A DNA stretch of 64,000 bases from Anaerolineae bacterium (GTDB lineage Bacteria > Chloroflexota > Anaerolineae > UBA1429): the NCBI GenBank assembly GCA_963675785.1, contig OY776562.1, positions 96,001 through 160,000 on the forward strand. The letters are read 5' to 3'. The first letter of the stretch is position 1; every line of letters starts with the position of its first letter. The notes below the pieces were generated by a model. It was not told where the DNA came from. It did not search any database and saw only the letters and a list, made by a program, of their open reading frames with translations. The translations under genes and the position numbers were made by a program. This document shows, piece by piece, positions 55,477-64,000 of the stretch.

Positions 55477-55905
55477 TCATTCGGACAGGGCTTCTAGGGC
55501 CAGTTTGTAGCCAGCCCAACCTAGGCCGCTGATTTGTCCGCGGCACACCGGTGCCGTTACGGAATGATGCCTCATCTCTTCACGCGCATAGATGTTAGAG
55601 AGGTGCACCTCAATGACCGGCACGGGAATGGCGGCGATGGCGTCGCGAATGGCCACACTATAGTGCGTATACCCCCCCGGATTGATAACAATGCCTTCAA
55701 ATTCGTTCGACGTTTGTTGCAACCAGTCGATGATTTCCCCTTCGTGGTTGGATTGACGACATTCCAGCCCGATCCCTCTTTCTCTTGCCCAGTTCAGCAG
55801 GCGCTGGTTGATATCTTCCAAAGTGTCGGCGCCATAGATATCAGGCTCGCGCATGCCCAGCATGTTGAGATTAGGTCCATTGATGACCAGGAATCGCTTG
55901 CTCAT
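55477..55905 (-). CDS. aroQ: Type II 3-dehydroquinate dehydratase
   Basis: NGPNLNMLGMREPDIYG, QSNHEG, EVHLSN. Confidence 0.96.
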   Translation of the reverse strand: MSKRFLVINGPNLNMLGMREPDIYGADTLEDINQRLLNWARERGIGLECRQSNHEGEIIDWLQQTSNEFEGIVINPGGYTHYSVAIRDAIAAIPVPVIEVHLSNIYAREEMRHHSVTAPVCRGQISGLGWAGYKLALEALSE

Positions 55906-57476
55906 GCTCTACTCCTCTCGAGCGCTTGCCGAACAACGGCAAGATCGTCGATGCTGTACAGATCTACCTGCCCAATATCATGGGGCAATACCAACCGCAT
56001 TACACCCTTGAGCGTTTTTTTATCGGATTGCATGGCCTGGATGACGGCTTTGATGCTCTCTGCCGGCCAGCGAACGGGCAGGTTATGGCGCTGCAATGTG
56101 TTTTCGATGCGTTGACACGTTTCACTGTTGCATAACCCCATGATCTCAGCGGTGCGGGCTGCTGTCGCCGTGCCCATGCTCACGGCAAAGCCATGGGGCA
56201 GGGTGTAGTTGCTGAGCAGCTCAAAAGCGTGGCCAAAGGTATGGCCCAGATTTAGAACAGCGCGCAGGCCGTGTTCCTGTGGATCTTGCTGCACAATGCG
56301 GATCTTAACTTCCAGGGCACGTTCGACCATCCAACGCAAAGGGGCATCGCCCTGTTCCAGGCGTTCGAACAGCTCGGGGTCATCAATGATGCCAGCTTTG
56401 ATGATCTCGGCGAGGCCGCACTGTACTTGCGTCTCATCCAAAGTGCTGGCTAAGGCGGGATCGATGGCCACCAATCGAGGTGCCATAAAAGCACCTACGA
56501 GGTTCTTGCCGCTAGGCAAGTCCACCGCCACCTTGCCCCCCACGGAAGCGTCAACCATGCCCAATAGGGTGGTGGGCATTTGTATCAAGCCTATGCCGCG
56601 CATATAGGTGCTGGCTGCAAAGCCCGCCATATCGGTGATAACGCCGCCTCCCAGCGCGACGACGGTACTGGAACGATCCAATCCTGCAGCTACAAAACCC
56701 TCGTACAGTTGTGAGAGGGTATCGAGGTTCTTGTGTTGTTCACCGGGCGGTAGAATAAGGCGGTGAACGGGTCTGTCCATAGTCTTGAGCGCGCCCTCAA
56801 CGGCTTTGCCGTAATAATGCCAGACGTTCTCATCACTCACTATCATAACGGCACCTTGTCCACAGTGGGCTTGTAGCAAGCTGGGCAGGTTGGGGGTGAT
56901 GTGATCGGCTATGACAATGGCGTAATCGCCCGCGGTGGAGCTGATATGATAACTGTTCGGTTGGCCTCGCCACATTGAGAGGATCTGCGCAACAATCTCG
57001 TTCTCGCTTCGTTTCGTGGTGTCGATATGCCAGGGGATGCGCGCATAGGCGCTACGCCGTGCGGCTAGGAGTGTGCGAATGCTGGTCAGCGTATCGCCCT
57101 GCTGTAGCAGTGGGCGCGATTCATCGCCCTCCAGTCGCTCGGCCAGCGCCTCTGGCGATGCGTCCAAGCAGATGACCAGCCCCGAGTCCTCGGCAAGGAT
57201 GAGGTTTTCTTCGGAGACAAGAGCCCCGCCGCCAGTGGCGATGACCTGTCCTTGTTCTGCAACAAGATCGCTCAACACCTGTCTCTCGATCTGTCTAAAG
57301 ACAGTCTCGCCATCTTGGGCAAATATCTCACTGATGGTCTTGCTGGCACGCATCTCGATGAGACTGTCCATGTCGGCAAAGGGTCTGCCGAGTTCGTCTG
57401 CCAGCAGCTGGCCAATGCTGCTTTTGCCGGTGCCCATAAAGCCCGTAATGACAATGCTGCGCTTATCGACGATCAT
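55902..57476 (-). CDS. aroKB: Fused shikimate kinase / 3-dehydroquinate synthase
   Basis: N-terminal GFMGTGKS and ATGGG (AroK); C-terminal GGGVITD, PTTLLGMVDASVGGK, LNLGHTFGHA (AroB). Confidence 0.93.
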   Translation of the reverse strand: MIVDKRSIVITGFMGTGKSSIGQLLADELGRPFADMDSLIEMRASKTISEIFAQDGETVFRQIERQVLSDLVAEQGQVIATGGGALVSEENLILAEDSGLVICLDASPEALAERLEGDESRPLLQQGDTLTSIRTLLAARRSAYARIPWHIDTTKRSENEIVAQILSMWRGQPNSYHISSTAGDYAIVIADHITPNLPSLLQAHCGQGAVMIVSDENVWHYYGKAVEGALKTMDRPVHRLILPPGEQHKNLDTLSQLYEGFVAAGLDRSSTVVALGGGVITDMAGFAASTYMRGIGLIQMPTTLLGMVDASVGGKVAVDLPSGKNLVGAFMAPRLVAIDPALASTLDETQVQCGLAEIIKAGIIDDPELFERLEQGDAPLRWMVERALEVKIRIVQQDPQEHGLRAVLNLGHTFGHAFELLSNYTLPHGFAVSMGTATAARTAEIMGLCNSETCQRIENTLQRHNLPVRWPAESIKAVIQAMQSDKKTLKGVMRLVLPHDIGQVDLYSIDDLAVVRQALERSRA

Positions 57477-58581
57477 GTTCGAGTCTTTCTAACAGATCTT
57501 GCATGGTGTCGCCACCAAAACGTTCCAGTAGGACGGCCATTAGCGTCCAGGCAACCATAGCCTCGCCTACGACGGCCGCCGCGGGTACTGCACATACGTC
57601 CGAGCGCTGGTACTGTGTTTCGGCTGCCTCGCCGCTGTTCAGGTCGATGGTGGGTTGATTCTTGATGGTGGTAGGGATGGGTTTCATGGCTGCTCGCACG
57701 ATGATGGGCTCACCATTGCTCATGCCGCCCTCTAGACCGCCTGCACGATTGGTTTTGCGCGTGTAGCCGCCTTTACCATCGGGGTAGAGGGCATCGTGAA
57801 CCTTGGTGCCGGGCAGGCCGGCGTTCTCAAAAGCAGGACCAATCTCGATGCCTTTGACGGCTTGAATGCTCATCATCGCCTGAGCCAGACGAGCGTCCAG
57901 ACGGTCTTCCCAAACGGCATAGGTGCCCAGTCCCACGGGTAAATTCTGAGCGGTTACCACAAAGATGCCTCCCAGTGAATCCCCCGCGGTTTTGGCATTA
58001 TCGATGGCTTGACGCATGTCTGCGGCAGCCCGGGTATCAGGACAAGAGACGTCAGAGTCTAGAGCGGCAGCGATGCGCTCGTCGAGGGACATATGCTCCA
58101 ATGAGGCACAAACGCCACCGATGGATTCGACATAACTGCCGACGGTAATGTCGGCTGCAGCCAGCACCTGAGCGGCGATAGCCCCCACGGCCACACGTGC
58201 AGCAGTCTCACGAGCGCTGGATCTTTCAGCAATGAGCCGTAGGTCGTCGATGGCGTATTTATGGGCTCCAGCCAGATCGGCATGGCCTGGGCGAGGGCGG
58301 CGCCAGACTGGCACTACTTTTTCCTGCCAGTTCTCGTAATCGCGATTAGGCACTACGAGTGCTAACGGTGAACCGATGGTGACACCCTGAACTACACCGC
58401 CAAGGATGCGTACGGTATCGGTCTCGATGCGCTGACGTGCACCGCGGCCATAACCGCCCTGACGTCGCGTGAGCATGGCGTTCATGGCGTCAGTATCAAT
58501 GGTCAAACCGGCGGGCAGCCCTTCGAGGATGGCCGTCAGGCAAGGACCGTGGGATTCACCAGCTGTTGTGAACTTGATCAT
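57463..58581 (-). CDS. aroC: Chorismate synthase
   Basis: TAGESHG, RPGHADL, ERSSARETA, GGLEGGMSNG, RSDVCAVP. Confidence 0.97.
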   Translation of the reverse strand: MIKFTTAGESHGPCLTAILEGLPAGLTIDTDAMNAMLTRRQGGYGRGARQRIETDTVRILGGVVQGVTIGSPLALVVPNRDYENWQEKVVPVWRRPRPGHADLAGAHKYAIDDLRLIAERSSARETAARVAVGAIAAQVLAAADITVGSYVESIGGVCASLEHMSLDERIAAALDSDVSCPDTRAAADMRQAIDNAKTAGDSLGGIFVVTAQNLPVGLGTYAVWEDRLDARLAQAMMSIQAVKGIEIGPAFENAGLPGTKVHDALYPDGKGGYTRKTNRAGGLEGGMSNGEPIIVRAAMKPIPTTIKNQPTIDLNSGEAAETQYQRSDVCAVPAAAVVGEAMVAWTLMAVLLERFGGDTMQDLLERLEHDRR

Positions 58582-59453
58582 TTTGCAGCCTCCATGGCGC
58601 TGCAGCAGGCCTCGTACATCCTCTTTACATTGGGTCGCCGCCCGGTCCATAGCTCAAAGGCGGCAGCTCCCTGATGTACAAGCATACCCAACCCATTGGA
58701 CACCTGAGCACCAACGCTTCTGGCTTGTTGCATCAAGCGGGTCTCGGTAGGATTGTAGACGAGGTCGAACAAAAAAGCCTCTGTTGGGAATGCCAAGTCC
58801 TCTGGCCAGACCGTGGTACCTTCTTTGGGGTGCATACCCATCGAGGTGCAGTGGACTATCAGGTCTACCCCTTTTGAAGCGCTGTCCAGGGTCTCAGTGG
58901 CCAAGGGGATAGCTTCCACAGAGACCTGTGAATTGACACTTCTCATGGTTTCAGCCAGTTCTTCGGCGCGGGCCGTTGTGCGGTTGGCGATGCGCACCTG
59001 GTAGCCCTGACTAAGTAGAGCATAGACAATAGCTCTGCTGGCCCCGCCGGCTCCCAAAACCAGAGCGCGTCTTTTCCCGGGGATATAGCCCGCTTCCAGA
59101 AGCGCTGCCCAGAATCCTTCCGCGTCGGTGTTGTGTCCCAGCAGTCCTTCTGGGCGAATAGCCACGGTATTCACAGCGCCAATAGCTCTGGCGGCGGGTG
59201 TTAGCTCGTCCACCAACGAGAGCAGGGCCTGTTTGTGGGGAATCGTGGCATTAAACCCCTTGATTCCTAGGGCCACCATGCCTTGGACGGCTTCCGGCAA
59301 ATTGTCGGGATGCACGGAAAAGGGCACATAACACCAGTCTATGCCTAGATCAACAAAGGCAGCGTTCTGCATTTGCGGTGAGACACTGTGTTCGATGGGG
59401 TAGCCAATGACAGCGGCAATGTGCGTTCTGCCTCTTGGCCAGAGCTGTTTCAT
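58578..59453 (-). CDS. aroE: Shikimate dehydrogenase
   Basis: HSVSPQMQN, NATIPHK, GAVNT, NTD, GAGGAS, GLGMLVHQG. Confidence 0.95.
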   Translation of the reverse strand: MKQLWPRGRTHIAAVIGYPIEHSVSPQMQNAAFVDLGIDWCYVPFSVHPDNLPEAVQGMVALGIKGFNATIPHKQALLSLVDELTPAARAIGAVNTVAIRPEGLLGHNTDAEGFWAALLEAGYIPGKRRALVLGAGGASRAIVYALLSQGYQVRIANRTTARAEELAETMRSVNSQVSVEAIPLATETLDSASKGVDLIVHCTSMGMHPKEGTTVWPEDLAFPTEAFLFDLVYNPTETRLMQQARSVGAQVSNGLGMLVHQGAAAFELWTGRRPNVKRMYEACCSAMEAAK

Positions 59454-60742
59454 ACGTTGATTTCTCCTAGGCGATCGAGGATCTCGCTGAACCCCGGAAA
59501 CGAATCGGGTATACATTCCGCGTCGTGGATGGTGGTTTCGCCGTGAGCGACGAGTCCGGCAATGGCCAGGGTCATTGCCAGGCGATGGTCGCCATAGCTT
59601 TGTACCGTAGCGCCCTGAAGCTGCCCAACACCCTCGATGATGAAACCATCCTCTGTCGGCTGGATTTGTGCACCCAGTGCAGTCAATTCGCGACTGACGG
59701 TATCGATGCGATCAGACTCTTTGTGGCGCAATTCGGCGGCATCGCGCACGATAGTGCTACCCTGGGCACAGGCTGCCGCCAGTGCCAGAACGGGTAATTC
59801 GTCGATCATCCGCGGTACTATGCTACCGCTCACCTCGATGCCGTGTAGCAGAGCGTGCTCTACTACAATATCGCCTACGGGTTCGCCGCCCGCATCGTGA
59901 ATATTCTCTAACGCGATGTGCGCGCCCATAGCATTGAGCACGTCGATGAGGCCAGTACGCGTGGGATTGACCCCCACGCCCTGGATACGGACCTTGCTTC
60001 CCGGCACTAATGTGGCGGCGGCAATAAGATAGCTGGCTGAAGATATATCGCCGGGGATGGTCATATCCATGGAAAGTAAACCTTCGATAGGGCCGCGCAG
60101 GATGTGGTGCAGATTCTCACTTTGCAAGTTCACGCCGCGGGCGCGCAGCATACGCTCGGTGTGGTCTCTGCTCGGGCCCGGTTCGACGACAATGGTCTCC
60201 CCTTTGGCATACAGGCCGGCCAGCAGCAGGCAAGATTTGACCTGGGCACTGGCAACGTTGAGATAGTGCTCGTAACCGCTCAACACTGTTCCTTCGATCT
60301 CAAGAGGCGGTGTGCCTTCGGGTTTGCAGATAATTCGGGCTCCCATGCAGGCCAGAGGTTCGGTGATACGGCGCATGGGGCGTTTTAGCAATTGAGGATC
60401 ACCGTTTAGCACAGAGGTGAATGACTGTGCCGCCAGAACACCCGCCCCCAGGCGCATCGTTGTACCTGAGCGAAGGCAGTTGATCGGCCCTTTAGGGGGG
60501 GTGAGACCGTGCAATCCGCGGCCGTGAACGACGATTTTGCTTCCCTGTTCTTCTACTCGGACACCCAATGCGCCCAGCATGCCCACGGTGGCGCTGCAAT
60601 CGCCCTCCATCAGCATGTGCTCAAGGTGTGAATCGCCAGAGGCCAGTGCAGAGAGCAACAAGGCGCGATGGGATATGGATTTGTCTCCGGGTACCGTTGT
60701 CTCGCCGATCAAAGGGCCGGAAGGGCGGCTAGTCATCTTCAT
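59450..60742 (-). CDS. aroA: 3-phosphoshikimate 1-carboxyvinyltransferase (EPSP synthase)
   Basis: PGDKSISHR, SGTTMRL, SAQVKS, RDHTE, KESDR, DHRLAM. Confidence 0.97.
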   Translation of the reverse strand: MKMTSRPSGPLIGETTVPGDKSISHRALLLSALASGDSHLEHMLMEGDCSATVGMLGALGVRVEEQGSKIVVHGRGLHGLTPPKGPINCLRSGTTMRLGAGVLAAQSFTSVLNGDPQLLKRPMRRITEPLACMGARIICKPEGTPPLEIEGTVLSGYEHYLNVASAQVKSCLLLAGLYAKGETIVVEPGPSRDHTERMLRARGVNLQSENLHHILRGPIEGLLSMDMTIPGDISSASYLIAAATLVPGSKVRIQGVGVNPTRTGLIDVLNAMGAHIALENIHDAGGEPVGDIVVEHALLHGIEVSGSIVPRMIDELPVLALAAACAQGSTIVRDAAELRHKESDRIDTVSRELTALGAQIQPTEDGFIIEGVGQLQGATVQSYGDHRLAMTLAIAGLVAHGETTIHDAECIPDSFPGFSEILDRLGEINV

Positions 60743-61611
60743 CGGTACAACTCCTGGCGAAGATCACGGGCAGCTTCAAGCTTTTGACGCAGGGCCTCCA
60801 GGTTGTTGCTTTTCAGCGCACCAGATATGCTGGCCAGCACACTGCTGGATTGGTCGAGGCATTCGCCCACATAATCGGCGTTAGTAGCCAGAATGTCCAT
60901 CATCATGGTGACATCACTAGCGGCTATACGGCTGGTATCGCGGAACCCTGAAGAGGCCAACTGCCAGGTCATTTCATCGTCACCACTTGCTGTGTTGGCT
61001 GCGCTAACCAGCGTAGCCGACAGCAAGTAAGGCAGGTGGCTGATAGCGGCCACAATGCGATCGTGTCGATCCGCTTCCATATGCAGCGGTCTGGCGCCGA
61101 TAGTCAGGATAAGTTGTTCAAGAATCGCGCTCTCTCTGTCACTGGTTCGAGCGTTGGACGTCATGACGTAGGTTTTATCAAGGAATAGACCGGGATCCGC
61201 CATGGCAAGGCCCGGCCGTTCTTTGCCGCACATGGGGTGACCGCCAATGGCGCCGATTTCTTTGGGCAGAGCCGACATGGTCTCGCAAATGACCCGCTTG
61301 GTGCTGCCCAGATCCGTAAGTATGGATCCCGGTTTCATCAGGGGGCCATACTTACGGATCTGTTCGATAATAGTGATTACAGGCGTTGCCAGCACTACAA
61401 GGTCGGCTTCGGCCACAGCTTTTTCGGCATCCATGGTGCCTTCATCAATGTAGCGCAGGTCTCGGGCTGTTTCGATGCTCGTTTCTCTGCGAGAGACGCC
61501 AATGACGTGTTTGCAGGCTTTACGCGTCGATAGTGCTGCCGCAAGAGAACCTCCCATAAGCCCGAGACCGATGATTGCTACAGTAAAGTCTCCAAAGTCA
61601 GGCTCCTTCAT
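60739..61611 (-). CDS. tyrA: Prephenate dehydrogenase
   Basis: GLGLMGGS, DLGSTK, HPMCGKE, SHLP, GFRDTSRIA. Confidence 0.93.
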   Translation of the reverse strand: MKEPDFGDFTVAIIGLGLMGGSLAAALSTRKACKHVIGVSRRETSIETARDLRYIDEGTMDAEKAVAEADLVVLATPVITIIEQIRKYGPLMKPGSILTDLGSTKRVICETMSALPKEIGAIGGHPMCGKERPGLAMADPGLFLDKTYVMTSNARTSDRESAILEQLILTIGARPLHMEADRHDRIVAAISHLPYLLSATLVSAANTASGDDEMTWQLASSGFRDTSRIAASDVTMMMDILATNADYVGECLDQSSSVLASISGALKSNNLEALRQKLEAARDLRQELYR

Positions 61612-61613
61612 GG

Positions 61614-62630
61614 TCAGGCGACCTCCCGGCCAACCGCGGCGGCGACAGCACGCACGTTATTCATCAGCGTCGAGAACCTTTCGGGTGTGAGTGATTGAGC
61701 GCCGTCTGAGAGAGCATGCTCGGGATCCGGATGCACCTCAATGAGCAATCCATCTGCGCCGACGGCAATGGCTGCCAAAGAGAGCGAAGGCACATAATGC
61801 CAATCGCCAGCGGCATGGCTAGGGTCGACGATGACGGGCAAGTGGCTGAGTTGCTTGAGGACGGGCACTGCCGAGAGATCCAGCGTATTGCGCGTGGCGG
61901 TCTCAAAAGTGCGAATACCCCGCTCACAGAGGATGACCTGGTCGTTACCGCGTGAGAGAATGTACTCGGCCGACATGAGCAATTCTTCGAGTTTGGACAT
62001 CATGCCACGTTTGAGGATGACAGGCTTATCGGTGCTGCCTACGGCGCAGAGCAGATTGTAATTTTGCATATTGCGCGTGCCGATTTGGAAGGCGTCGGTG
62101 TACTTGGCGACGATATCGACTTGCTCAGATGACATTACTTCGGTGACGACGGGCAATTCCGTTGCCAGTCTGGCCTGGGCCAAAAGCTTGAGTCCTTCTT
62201 CACCGAGCCCCTGGAAGCTGTAGGGCGATGTGCGTGGCTTGTAGGCTCCTGCTCGGATAACCGAGGCTCCGGCTTTTTTGACCGCCTGTGCTGCGGCCAT
62301 GATTTGTGATTCGCTCTCGATCGCGCAAGGACCGGCCAGAGCTACGACTTGATTGCCGCCAATAGCCACTGTGCCAATGTGAACGATTGTATTTTGGGGG
62401 TGGAAATCGCGGCTGGCCAACTTGTACTTGGTTAATACGCGTACTGTCTTTTCCACACCCTCCATGAGACTGAAAGCATCATCATCCACCGGACGTTCGT
62501 CACCGATGATACCAATAATTGTACGTTCTTCACCAACAGAGAGATGGGTGTCAAAGCCCAGTGACTTGACGCGTGCGACAACATGATCGACCTGGGCTGT
62601 AGTGGCACTACTTTTCATCACGATGATCAT
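61614..62630 (-). CDS. aroF: DAHP synthase, type I-beta with N-terminal regulatory domain
   Basis: N-terminal ferredoxin/ACT-like segment, [30 protein letters not shown]. Confidence 0.95.
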
Positions 62631-62998
62631 TCCTTCACCTCCTTGAGGTCAGGCCTGAGCTTGGATGCCTCTTTGAGGTAACTATGCTTGATCTCTGATT
62701 GGGCTTTGTCGGTATTCCATAACAAAAGCACGCGGATACAATGTGCAAGGCTTTCCTCCACCGGGATCTCACAGCTGTCCATCAAGGGAACTGTGGTCCA
62801 GCCGAGCATGCGTGCGGCCCGGGCGGGGAATGCTGCCGTCAAATCTGGGGTCACTGTAAACAGTGCTGCTGCCAGATCATCTACGTTAAAGTCATTTGCC
62901 TGCTGCATGGCTACCAATAACTCGCTCGTCGCTTCATAAATGCAATTGGCATCATTGCCGTCAGTGGTGGTGGCCCCTCGAATACCGCGTGTTGTCAT
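62627..62998 (-). CDS. aroH: Chorismate mutase, AroH class
   Basis: [27 protein letters not shown]; AAGGAG SD. Confidence 0.95.
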
Positions 62999-63016
62999 GC
63001 ATTTCTCCTTACAAAC

Positions 63017-63049
63017 AAAAAAAGCGTGAGGCTGTGAGCCTCACGCTTT
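63017..63049 (-). terminator. Attenuator terminator in the aro operon leader
   Basis: Minus strand AAAGCGTGAGGCT-CAC-AGCCTCACGCTTTTTTT, 18 nt before the aroH start. Confidence 0.85.
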
Positions 63050-63080
63050 GGGTTACTTTTCCCCCTTCTTTGCCTACGCG

Positions 63081-63206
63081 CTAAGCCGCACCTCCCGAGT
63101 TTGGGCTGCTAAAATAGTAATAATAAAAGGCAAAGCGATAATCCGGGCAGCTGTTCTGCTGTCCGCAAAGAAGGTTATTCAATTGGCGATCGTGACTATG
63201 TTGCAT
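63081..63206 (-). CDS. Tyr/Phe-rich attenuator leader peptide, 41 aa (not in ORF track)
   Basis: MQHSHDRQLNNLLCGQQNSCPDYRFAFYYYYFSSPNSGGAA; GAGGAG SD 10 nt upstream; alternative in-frame ATG at 63224. Confidence 0.8.
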   Translation of the reverse strand: MQHSHDRQLNNLLCGQQNSCPDYRFAFYYYYFSSPNSGGAA

Positions 63207-63236
63207 AAAAAGACCGCTCCTCATGAATATGAGCCT

Positions 63237-63265
63237 AGACTAACACGTGAACCAGAGAGTGTCAA
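63237..63265 (-). promoter_or_regulatory. aro operon promoter
   Basis: TTGACA-17 bp-TAGTCT with extended TG on the minus strand. Confidence 0.7.
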
Positions 63266-63352
63266 GTGGCAATTCCAGCACGTTTATCCCGCCAAAACTT
63301 TGTGTTATACTTGCCAGCGCACCGGCTAGTCAGTCCGATTCTGGAGACGCCC

Positions 63353-64000
63353 ATGTATACCCCTGCCAGTTTGTATGCCCGTACGCAATGTACGCAGTTG
63401 AACCAGCCACCTCTTAGTGAGGTCATGTTGGAGAATATCGGTGTGGATAGCACAGCTTTGGGACGAAAAGGGCGATTGTACCTTTTGTGCGACCCGGATA
63501 GCAACCTTGGTATGCCGCTGGCTTTTGCACAGGCTTATTATGATTCACCGGTTTTCGATATTCTCCCCGCGCTTGAAGCATCGTATGTGGACGCATTTTG
63601 TGCCGCCGACGAGTATGGTGATGGGCGGATTCTGGCGGCGCTTGTTCTGCAGGGTTTGGATATTTATGTTCTGGCCGCAACGGATGCTGACGTCTATTTG
63701 TTGCGGGAGGGGACGGTCAGCCACCCCTTGCGTGAACTGCATACCCGCACTGAATCATTGGACGAGCTACCTGAAGACCAGTGTGAGATCAGATTGGTGC
63801 GTGCTCGTGCCATGATGGGCGAGCAGATTGTCATGGCTTCTCGGGGATTGACAGACAAGTTATTAAGCAGAGATGATCGCTCAGCGCGATTGCGTGGGGG
63901 CAACAATTCTCTGGCCCGGCGGATTGCCCAGCTCTCTAGTGTTGATGGCCGAGAAGGCCCGGTAACGGTGATTAGCCTACCGGCGATTACGCCGACGGCG
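63353..64000 (+). CDS. PP2C/PPM phosphatase-like domain protein, degenerate active site (3' partial; not in ORF track)
   Basis: 216 stop-free codons from an ATG after GGAG; KGRLYLLCD, DADVYLLREG, IVMASRGLTD, PVTVI echo PPM motifs. Confidence 0.6.
   Translation, partial: MYTPASLYARTQCTQLNQPPLSEVMLENIGVDSTALGRKGRLYLLCDPDSNLGMPLAFAQAYYDSPVFDILPALEASYVDAFCAADEYGDGRILAALVLQGLDIYVLAATDADVYLLREGTVSHPLRELHTRTESLDELPEDQCEIRLVRARAMMGEQIVMASRGLTDKLLSRDDRSARLRGGNNSLARRIAQLSSVDGREGPVTVISLPAITPTA

Follow-up and report, generated by a model that had tools for sequence, protein, structure and literature searches.

We analysed a 64,000-nucleotide stretch of an Anaerolineae genome (contig OY776562.1, positions 96,001 to 160,000), referred to in the following as the window, and describe an element located on its minus strand directly in front of aroH. 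Very probably, this element controls the operon aroH-aroF-tyrA-aroA-aroE-aroC-aroKB-aroQ by transcription attenuation, with a ribosome on a leader peptide ORF acting as the sensor. The evidence for this comes from the anatomy of the leader, its conservation across the class, the way in which its tyrosine (Tyr, Y) and phenylalanine (Phe, F) cluster is constrained as codons, and covariation within the family in both terminator and antiterminator.

The promoter, the Shine-Dalgarno (SD) sequence, the 41-codon open reading frame (ORF), the Y/F cluster and the terminator all lie on the minus strand at the positions given by a previous reading of the DNA letters alone (the sequence-only reading), and the coordinates are collected in Table 1. 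The -35 box of the promoter-like site is a perfect consensus, while the -10 box TAGTCT matches TATAAT at three of six positions and is extended by TGn; with this weak -10 the site fell below the threshold of a consensus scan and hence was not listed there. The same TTGAC(A/T)-17-TAnnCT layout with TGn was found at the same place upstream in three relatives (loci L004, L005 and L010), and TTGACT-17-TATAAT at the corresponding place in another (L018). Transcription is predicted to start near 63230. The leader ORF encodes the peptide MQHSHDRQLNNLLCGQQNSCPDYRFAFYYYYFSSPNSGGAA, which contains 5 Tyr, 3 Phe and no tryptophan (Trp), all eight aromatic residues being situated inside ten consecutive codons. 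An alternative in-frame ATG at 63224 would give 47 amino acids; it lies about 6 nucleotides (nt) from the predicted transcript start and is without an SD sequence. Such clusters are rare: when the 3.22-Mb genome was scanned in six frames, 2 places, one of them the leader, had 8 or more aromatic codons among 10, and 21 places had 7 or more.

The terminator stem is a perfect helix of 13 base pairs (bp; -20.9 kcal/mol), and its 5' arm and loop (63049-63034) double as segment 3 of the antiterminator. It is followed by the SD sequence of aroH (AAGGAG, 63010-63005) and by the aroH start codon (ATG, 62998). As the ORF upstream of the leader is divergent (plus strand), the hairpin at 63049-63021 is not the terminator of another gene. 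Overall, the 227-nt leader folds better than its dinucleotide shuffles (z -3.9, 0/200). Three features of a classical leader-peptide attenuator are present here: an ORF that has an SD sequence and a start codon, a cluster of end-product codons, and a terminator before the first gene.

From this arrangement the following mechanism can be proposed. The RNA would start near 63230 and a ribosome would translate the 41-codon leader. With ample Tyr-tRNA and Phe-tRNA, the ribosome would pass the Y/F cluster, reach the TAG codon at 63083 and cover segment 2, the segment which spans the leader stop; the 13-bp terminator with its U7 tract would then form, and RNA polymerase would stop before aroH. A shortage of charged tRNA-Tyr, of charged tRNA-Phe or of both would make the ribosome stall at 63140-63111, at a distance of about 20-45 nt on the 5' side of segment 2. 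The latter, left free, would pair with the 5' arm and loop of the terminator once these have been made, so that the terminator would be blocked and the pathway together with the Tyr branch would be transcribed. Translation of the ORF, the stalling and the kinetic order of folding are read here from the arrangement of the leader, as is the expected response to Tyr/Phe starvation, and either of the two amino acids, or both, may be the one that matters in vivo.

Conservation and codon content of the leader

A search of 61 related genomes gave aroH homologues in 49 of them. An F/Y-rich open frame together with a terminator-like hairpin was present upstream of aroH in 30/30 loci, the window's own included, and the frame ended 23-59 nt before the hairpin. 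Typical clusters in the relatives are A-F-Y-Y-Y-F, F-T-F-Y-Y-Y and A-F-Y-F-Y-Y-P. Regarding individual loci, L029 was counted although it is outside the 90-codon length filter, its frame being open further upstream; the hairpin of L027 was assigned by hand after a wrong automatic choice; and the terminator of L013 has a poor U tail. The sequence-only reading had spoken of a ‘Chloroflexota-like’ genome, and this agrees with public records, in which the carriers of a close aroH are named as Anaerolineaceae, Anaerolineae, Leptolinea or Chloroflexota. When a codon criterion was applied to 80 public aroH loci, the leader was detected in 10 and not in 70. These 70 loci belong mostly to Eremiobacterota/Vulcanimicrobiota, Dehalococcoidia, Gemmatimonadaceae and Bacillota, and include one Anaerolinea locus, in which DAHP synthase precedes aroH.

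A covariance model (R1) was built from the 30 leaders, with the window in the seed. R1 matched 93 of 151 genomes sampled evenly over the class, corresponding to 72 of 101 genera and to 70 of 113 high-quality genomes. Full-length matches were obtained at 74 of 77 chosen loci, the other three (L036, L037 and L056) having different terminators, and in metagenomes 4 of 80 loci matched. A second model (R2) was made of the 29 relatives only, leaving the window out. R2 found the window leader at 63150-63010 (minus strand) with 48.5 bits and an E-value of 1.1e-10, the next non-overlapping match having an E-value of 0.09. The window leader thus truly belongs to a family that is spread over the class, although it has diverged rather far, and the Y/F cluster, whose conservation the sequence-only reading had proposed as a check, is kept well beyond this one genome. 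Among the genome contigs, the metagenome contigs and the genomes of the relatives, there was no relative with more than about 65% identity in aroH. On one metagenome contig (L163:1139-1312, plus strand) a leader-like match (42.9 bits) was located downstream of aroH, between aroH and the next gene.

To describe the cluster at the codon level, 235 codons of the 30 clusters were counted, of which 113 were Tyr, 63 Phe and 3 Trp; the leaders of the relatives are nearly free of Trp codons (4 of 185). Third positions in the 30 clusters were T in 123, C in 94, G in 17 and A in 1 case, and against 63 TTT/TTC codons there was a single TTG and no TTA. Y and F differ in number and order from one locus to the next, whereas frame, start region and a stop near segment 2 are kept. 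The pyrimidine third positions and the varying Y/F order therefore point to selection for Phe and Tyr codons and not for a U/A-rich RNA motif. TAT and TTT are the commoner synonyms in the long ORFs of the genome, and there is no rare-codon effect.

These counts bear on the possibility that the ORF and the terminator are real but sense no amino acid, the brake being constitutive or otherwise controlled (coupling, Rho, growth rate) and the Y/F codons a by-product of U/A-rich RNA. Folds of the window leader with a masked ribosome, described below, never open the terminator, as this explanation would have it, and the family-wide fold test is uninformative. A by-product of composition is hard to reconcile with the near-exclusive pyrimidine third positions, with the 63 to 1 ratio of TTT/TTC to TTG/TTA, or with a cluster whose count and order of Y/F change under a fixed frame and stop. 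Paralogous copies of the leader in front of tyrS, pheA and amino-acid transporters also speak against it, and we regard it as improbable.

Alternatively, the 41-amino-acid product could be a functional micro-protein whose place before the operon is unrelated to attenuation. With 41-47 codons the leaders are longer than those of enterobacteria, and some stretches after the cluster recur, e.g. Y-Y-P-x-x-I-x-G. The N-terminal parts, on the contrary, vary in length and in sequence, and the recurring C-terminal residues overlie conserved RNA helices (the CCCCG hairpin arm and segment 2). As a micro-protein gene would also leave the adjoining terminator without a role, this explanation appears extremely improbable next to that of an attenuator.

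Pairing of the terminator and the antiterminator

The sequence-only reading had suggested compensatory changes as a further check of the attenuator, and such changes were found for the terminator and for the antiterminator alike. Together with the conservation in 30/30 loci, this covariation supports the attenuator interpretation. In the case of the terminator, 90.5% of the cells were paired in 30 sequences and 9 of 13 pairs had changed on both sides. Its covariation was 0.347, compared to 0.185 in shuffles (0/500 as high), and became lower when the helix was slid. In 74 distinct sequences, 91% were paired and 8 of 13 pairs had changed on both sides, in an alignment which was made by the model and thus fitted to the terminator helix.

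In the case of the antiterminator, a segment near the leader stop with the consensus GCGCUGCACG is complementary to the terminator 5' arm and loop, CGUGGAGCGC. In a MAFFT alignment, which is not fitted to the helix, 73.7% of the cells were paired and 6 of 12 pairs were double-changed; the covariation was 0.240 against 0.144 in shuffles (0/500), and 0.069 at most when slid. One position illustrates both helices. Column 154 of the alignment combines with column 87 in segment 2 as AU 17, CG 4, GC 4 and GU 4 times, and with column 176 in the 3' arm as UA 21, CG 4 and GC 3 times. Such covariation with both partners is the mark of two alternative helices. Across the wider set, changes in the terminator loop (e.g. 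CAACC, CAUACC, CACAG) go along with matching changes in segment 2, in its 5' part. As many rows of the alignment made by the covariance model were misaligned in the segment 2 region, an alignment-free swap test was used instead. In 72 leaders the pairing with the leader's own partner amounted on average to -20.3 kcal/mol and with swapped partners to -16.9 kcal/mol; the own partner was better in 65 of 72, and 0/2000 permutations were as low.

The location of segment 2 fits the proposed mechanism as well. Measured by the ends of the extended duplex, its position relative to the stop codon stays between about -27 and +21 nt in 30/30 loci, and therefore it would be occluded by a terminating ribosome and free when the ribosome stalls on the cluster. 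A small hairpin after the cluster is found in relatives too (CCCCG/CGGGG, CCCTG/CAGGG, GCCTGC/GCAGGC). All five of its pairs have changed on both sides, yet only 60% of the cells are paired, owing to register problems. In the window the corresponding hairpin at 63105-63094 may act as a pause or coupling hairpin.

The antiterminator in the window's own copy is the least secure part of this interpretation. The sequence-only reading had let the segment spanning the stop pair with the terminator as far as into its 3' arm; this is to be corrected, as the partner is the 5' arm and loop (63046-63034) and the pairing does not extend to the 3' arm. The resulting duplex of 63092-63078 with 63046-63034 has 12 pairs, one mismatch and one bulge (-13.9 kcal/mol).

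Several observations weigh against the attenuator interpretation, some of them in the window itself. Firstly, the window antiterminator (-13.9 kcal/mol) is weaker than the terminator (-20.9 kcal/mol), 11% of shuffles match the best window duplex (z -1.3), and the window ranks 17th of 72 in the swap test. Secondly, minimum free energy (MFE) folds contain a long-range helix of 10 bp between CCUUCUUUGC in codons 11-14 and GCAAAGAAGG, located between segment 2 and the terminator (63174-63165 with 63073-63064; duplex -20.5 kcal/mol, z -2.0). This helix encloses segment 2, so that the antiterminator would have to form as a pseudoknot or before the helix does. In the relatives the helix is not conserved (mean z +0.1, 3/30 below -1.64). 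Thirdly, the sequence-only reading had proposed to fold the leader with the ribosome-covered codons masked, and in this case the structure did not switch: MFE folds with a 30-nt ribosome mask at any control codon kept 13/13 terminator pairs. Nor was the pairing of segments 2 and 3 ever seen in folds of transcripts that end ahead of the 3' arm, because the long-range helix encloses segment 2. The antiterminator was absent from all nested MFE folds, masked or unmasked, of full-length and truncated transcripts alike.

At the family level, the pairing of segment 2 with the sequence before the cluster (1:2 pairing) is weak (mean z -1.0, 9/30 loci below -1.64), and folds of truncated transcripts of the 30 loci gave no separation between the ‘stalled’ (17/30) and the ‘at stop’ (19/30) states. 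Finally, the controls of the covariation and swap tests keep the relatedness of the sequences, so these tests show co-variation and give no probability. The masked folds were not taken to refute the interpretation: attenuation depends on the kinetics of folding, and a pseudoknot is beyond what nested folds can represent.

Immediately behind the stop codon there is a purine motif, AAAGAAG, that recurs in several relatives (L007, L015, L021, L022 and L027), without a conserved partner.

Known systems and additional leader copies

Leader-peptide attenuation is textbook knowledge in enterobacteria and has been demonstrated in a few actinobacteria. When positions 62500-63600 were searched with Rfam 15, no family fitted. 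The best matches were Hrs12 (20.7 bits, E 1.5) and Phe_leader (RF01859), whose 18.9 bits (E 2.9) stand against a gathering score of 55; the T-box family (RF00230) gave no match in this region at E-values up to 10, while the same library finds the T-box of the presumable trpS in this genome.

These searches are relevant to a further explanation, according to which a factor acting in trans (uncharged tRNA as in a T-box, a TRAP/PyrR-type protein or a small ligand) binds the region of segments 2 and 3 and the ORF is incidental. In favour of this, not only the pairing but also the sequence of segment 2 and of the terminator arm is strongly conserved, and the genome does possess a T-box, in front of trpS. 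The leader, for its part, matched no T-box or other Rfam family at E up to 10, is too small, and has no visible specifier loop or T-box sequence. Moreover, the in-frame Y/F cluster is kept across the class with its start and SD sequence. We consider a trans-acting factor very improbable. Functionally, the Tyr/Phe/Trp T-boxes of Firmicutes share with the proposed attenuator the choice between antiterminator and terminator upon shortage of charged tRNA, and biosynthesis, synthetase and transporter genes as targets. A T-box, in contrast, senses uncharged tRNA by itself, independently of translation.

Among leader-peptide attenuators, pheL-pheA and pheM-pheST of E. coli have a short leader ORF with a run of aromatic codons, as the window does, and an antiterminator/terminator choice decided by the translating ribosome, as is proposed for the window (according to the part of PMC11802643 available to us), and pheL-pheA, like the window leader, precedes a biosynthetic gene that contains a chorismate mutase. 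In contrast to these E. coli leaders, the one in the window is dominated by Tyr (5 Tyr, 3 Phe), its ORF is about three times longer, and there is no detectable homology. Furthermore, it stands before the genes of the entire common pathway and tyrA, where pheL has pheA as its target, and the phylum is Chloroflexota.

Another close known system is aroR of C. glutamicum, a Phe-Tyr-Phe leader attenuator before aroF (Neshat et al. 2014, as reported in the accessible part of PMC11802643). Both are mixed Phe/Tyr leaders over an operon that starts the shikimate pathway, the likeness being functional only. As far as that part of the source describes it, aroR has three control codons, compared to ten in the window cluster, and is actinobacterial with another operon content. 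It responded to Phe but not to Tyr. This is another point against our interpretation, since Tyr was without effect in the sole tested analogue, so that sensing of Tyr is not assumable from codons alone. At the same time, the leader described here offers a natural test of Tyr as a control codon.

A predicted element of Acholeplasma, uORFC-13-1 before aroF, has 24 representatives in one genus, and its U-run corresponds to at least one Phe (PMC8632094, seen in part). What it has in common with the window is a predicted upstream ORF containing Phe codons, placed immediately ahead of an intrinsic terminator and a gene for DAHP synthase. As differences, the portion of that source available to us mentions no Tyr run, and nothing comparable appeared in the Rfam search of the window region. 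Regarding surveys, no RNA element for Phe/Tyr genes was found in Actinobacteria according to the accessible part of PMC1262725; in what we could see of PMC3766115, only the four motifs that Rfam then held (histidine, leucine, threonine, tryptophan) were compared, and a gamma-proteobacterial origin was suggested.

Our literature search found no description of such a leader for Anaerolineae or Chloroflexota/Chloroflexi. The sequence-only reading had known of no characterised Tyr-dominated leader over such an operon in a Chloroflexota-like genome and had asked for a literature check; the result agrees with it, with two qualifications: the leader is class-wide and not peculiar to one genome, and a mixed Phe/Tyr aro leader is known from C. 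glutamicum (PMC11802643, seen in part). The mechanism as such is classical; what appears to be new is the phylum, for which no description was found, and Tyr as the main control codon. A Tyr-dominated leader in most sampled families of Anaerolineae extends the attenuation mechanism to Chloroflexota and would tie the entire shikimate pathway to the supply of Tyr and Phe in these organisms. The leader also makes a clean case for a new Rfam family, which would help to annotate genomes in a class represented mainly by metagenomes.

Extra leader copies were detected in other Anaerolineae genomes before tyrS, before pheA-DAHP synthase genes and before genes of Liv-type transporters, all of them plausible targets if the leader senses Tyr/Phe. 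A Tyr-rich leader stands before tyrS at two loci (L155:1170-3146, minus strand; L161:163-2232, plus strand), where the synthetase has a B3_4 domain at its N-terminus; this fusion is unusual and measures 659-690 amino acids. In L156:3032-3180 (minus strand), a leader with F-S-T-F-T-F and no Tyr precedes pheA and then DAHP synthase, and another copy of the family lies before pheA-DAHP synthase in L158. Tyr/Phe leaders are also found before genes for Liv-type periplasmic binding proteins, permeases and ATPases (L150-L153; L150 and L151 are 3 kb apart on contig 93 of genome G046). This suggests that the Liv-type systems serve aromatic amino-acid uptake under the same control.

A different codon run was observed in genome G162 (L159:3101-3258, minus strand; R1 44.9 bits). 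This 31-codon leader contains the Thr run T-T-T-T-G-T-P-A-T and stands before aspartokinase; the second ORF behind it is taken for aspartate-semialdehyde dehydrogenase by its N-terminus. The leader looks like a re-coded paralogue. It is possible, at rather less than even odds in our estimation, that the family represents a modular class-wide scaffold, made of segment 2 and the terminator arm and loop, which was duplicated and re-coded (Tyr/Phe, Phe and Thr runs) and plays the regulon-wide role that T-boxes have in Firmicutes, and that the long-range helix of the window makes antitermination dependent on a second, queued ribosome on codons 11-14.

The aro operon and its genome context

The sequence-only reading had named an eight-gene aro operon, and Pfam assigned all eight ORFs accordingly (Table 1). 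The operon comprises the full common pathway, the first step towards Phe and Tyr, and the Tyr branch; it contains no pheA and no trp genes. A leader without Trp codons is consistent with this content, i.e. with chorismate mutase and tyrA in the absence of trp genes.

Table 1. Positions of the leader elements and of the aro genes in the window
Feature	Positions	Strand	Remarks
Promoter-like site	63237-63265	-	-35 TTGACA 63265-63260, 17-nt spacer, TGn 63245-63243, -10 TAGTCT 63242-63237
Leader SD GAGGAG	63217-63222	-	10 nt 5' of ATG 63206
Leader ORF, 41 codons + TAG (63083-63081)	63081-63206	-	homologous open frames in 30/30 relatives' loci
Long-range helix, 5' strand, codons 11-14	63165-63174	-	MFE folds
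Putative control codons UAU CGC UUU GCC UUU UAU UAU UAC UAU UUU (Y R F A F Y Y Y Y F)	63111-63140	-	
Small hairpin directly 3' of control codons, CCC-6 nt-GGG	63094-63105	-	
Segment 2, putative antiterminator 5' strand, spans leader stop codon	63078-63092	-	duplex with 63046-63034
Long-range helix, 3' strand, between segment 2 and terminator	63064-63073	-	MFE folds
Intrinsic terminator	63021-63049	-	5' arm 63049-63037, loop CAC, 3' arm 63033-63021
U7 tract of terminator	63017-63023	-	
aroH, chorismate mutase type I, 123 amino acids	62627-62998	-	Pfam CM_1 144.8 bits
aroF, DAHP synthase type I-beta, N-terminal ferredoxin-like domain	61614-62630	-	Pfam DAHP_synth_1 262.5 bits, DAHP_snth_FXD 89.6 bits
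tyrA, prephenate dehydrogenase	60739-61611	-	Pfam PDH_N, PDH_C
aroA, EPSP synthase	59450-60742	-	Pfam EPSP_synthase 375.7 bits
aroE, shikimate dehydrogenase	58578-59516	-	Pfam Shikimate_dh_N, SDH_C; start = first ATG
aroC, chorismate synthase	57463-58650	-	Pfam Chorismate_synt 392.4 bits
aroK-aroB, shikimate kinase-3-dehydroquinate synthase fusion, one 524-amino-acid ORF	55902-57476	-	Pfam SKI, DHQ_synthase, DHQS_C
aroQ, type II 3-dehydroquinase, final operon gene	55477-55905	-	Pfam DHquinase_II 207.9 bits

The absence of Trp codons is also consistent with the rest of the genome. Three families of the Trp pathway (Chorismate_bind, Trp_syntA and IGPS) were not found in this single-contig genome, for which completeness is estimated at 94.8%, while 14/14 control genomes were matched. 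A T-box (Rfam RF00230, 115.2 bits; L120:2400-2622, minus strand, at about 3109158-3109380) lies before the shorter tRNA-synt_1b gene (366-amino-acid frame), which is presumably trpS. Possibly the organism is auxotrophic for Trp and nevertheless monitors the charging of Trp-tRNA. If Trp synthesis is indeed missing, chorismate feeds Phe and Tyr, and a Trp-free leader would be a sensible governor of the pathway.

With model R1, one copy of the leader was found in the organism's own genome. Weak extra matches of R1 in this genome were rejected, as they are coding regions or gene-end terminators and not leaders. Upstream of the genome's own pheA and tyrS no leader was found. The pheA gene, which is outside the window (L118:1207-2554, minus strand), is downstream of a PALP enzyme gene, overlaps the upstream small-subunit gene of the Aconitase_C family by 11 nt, and is not under the aro leader. 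A genome-wide scan for runs of W, H, Y, F, T, I, M or C codons was too noisy to reveal other leaders.

The divergent ORF upstream of the leader (63350-63997, plus strand) has 216 amino acids inside the window, runs off the window end and gave no Pfam match. Within the operon, the aroE and aroC ORFs overlap their upstream neighbours by about 70 nt when the first ATG is taken as the start; their true starts are probably later.

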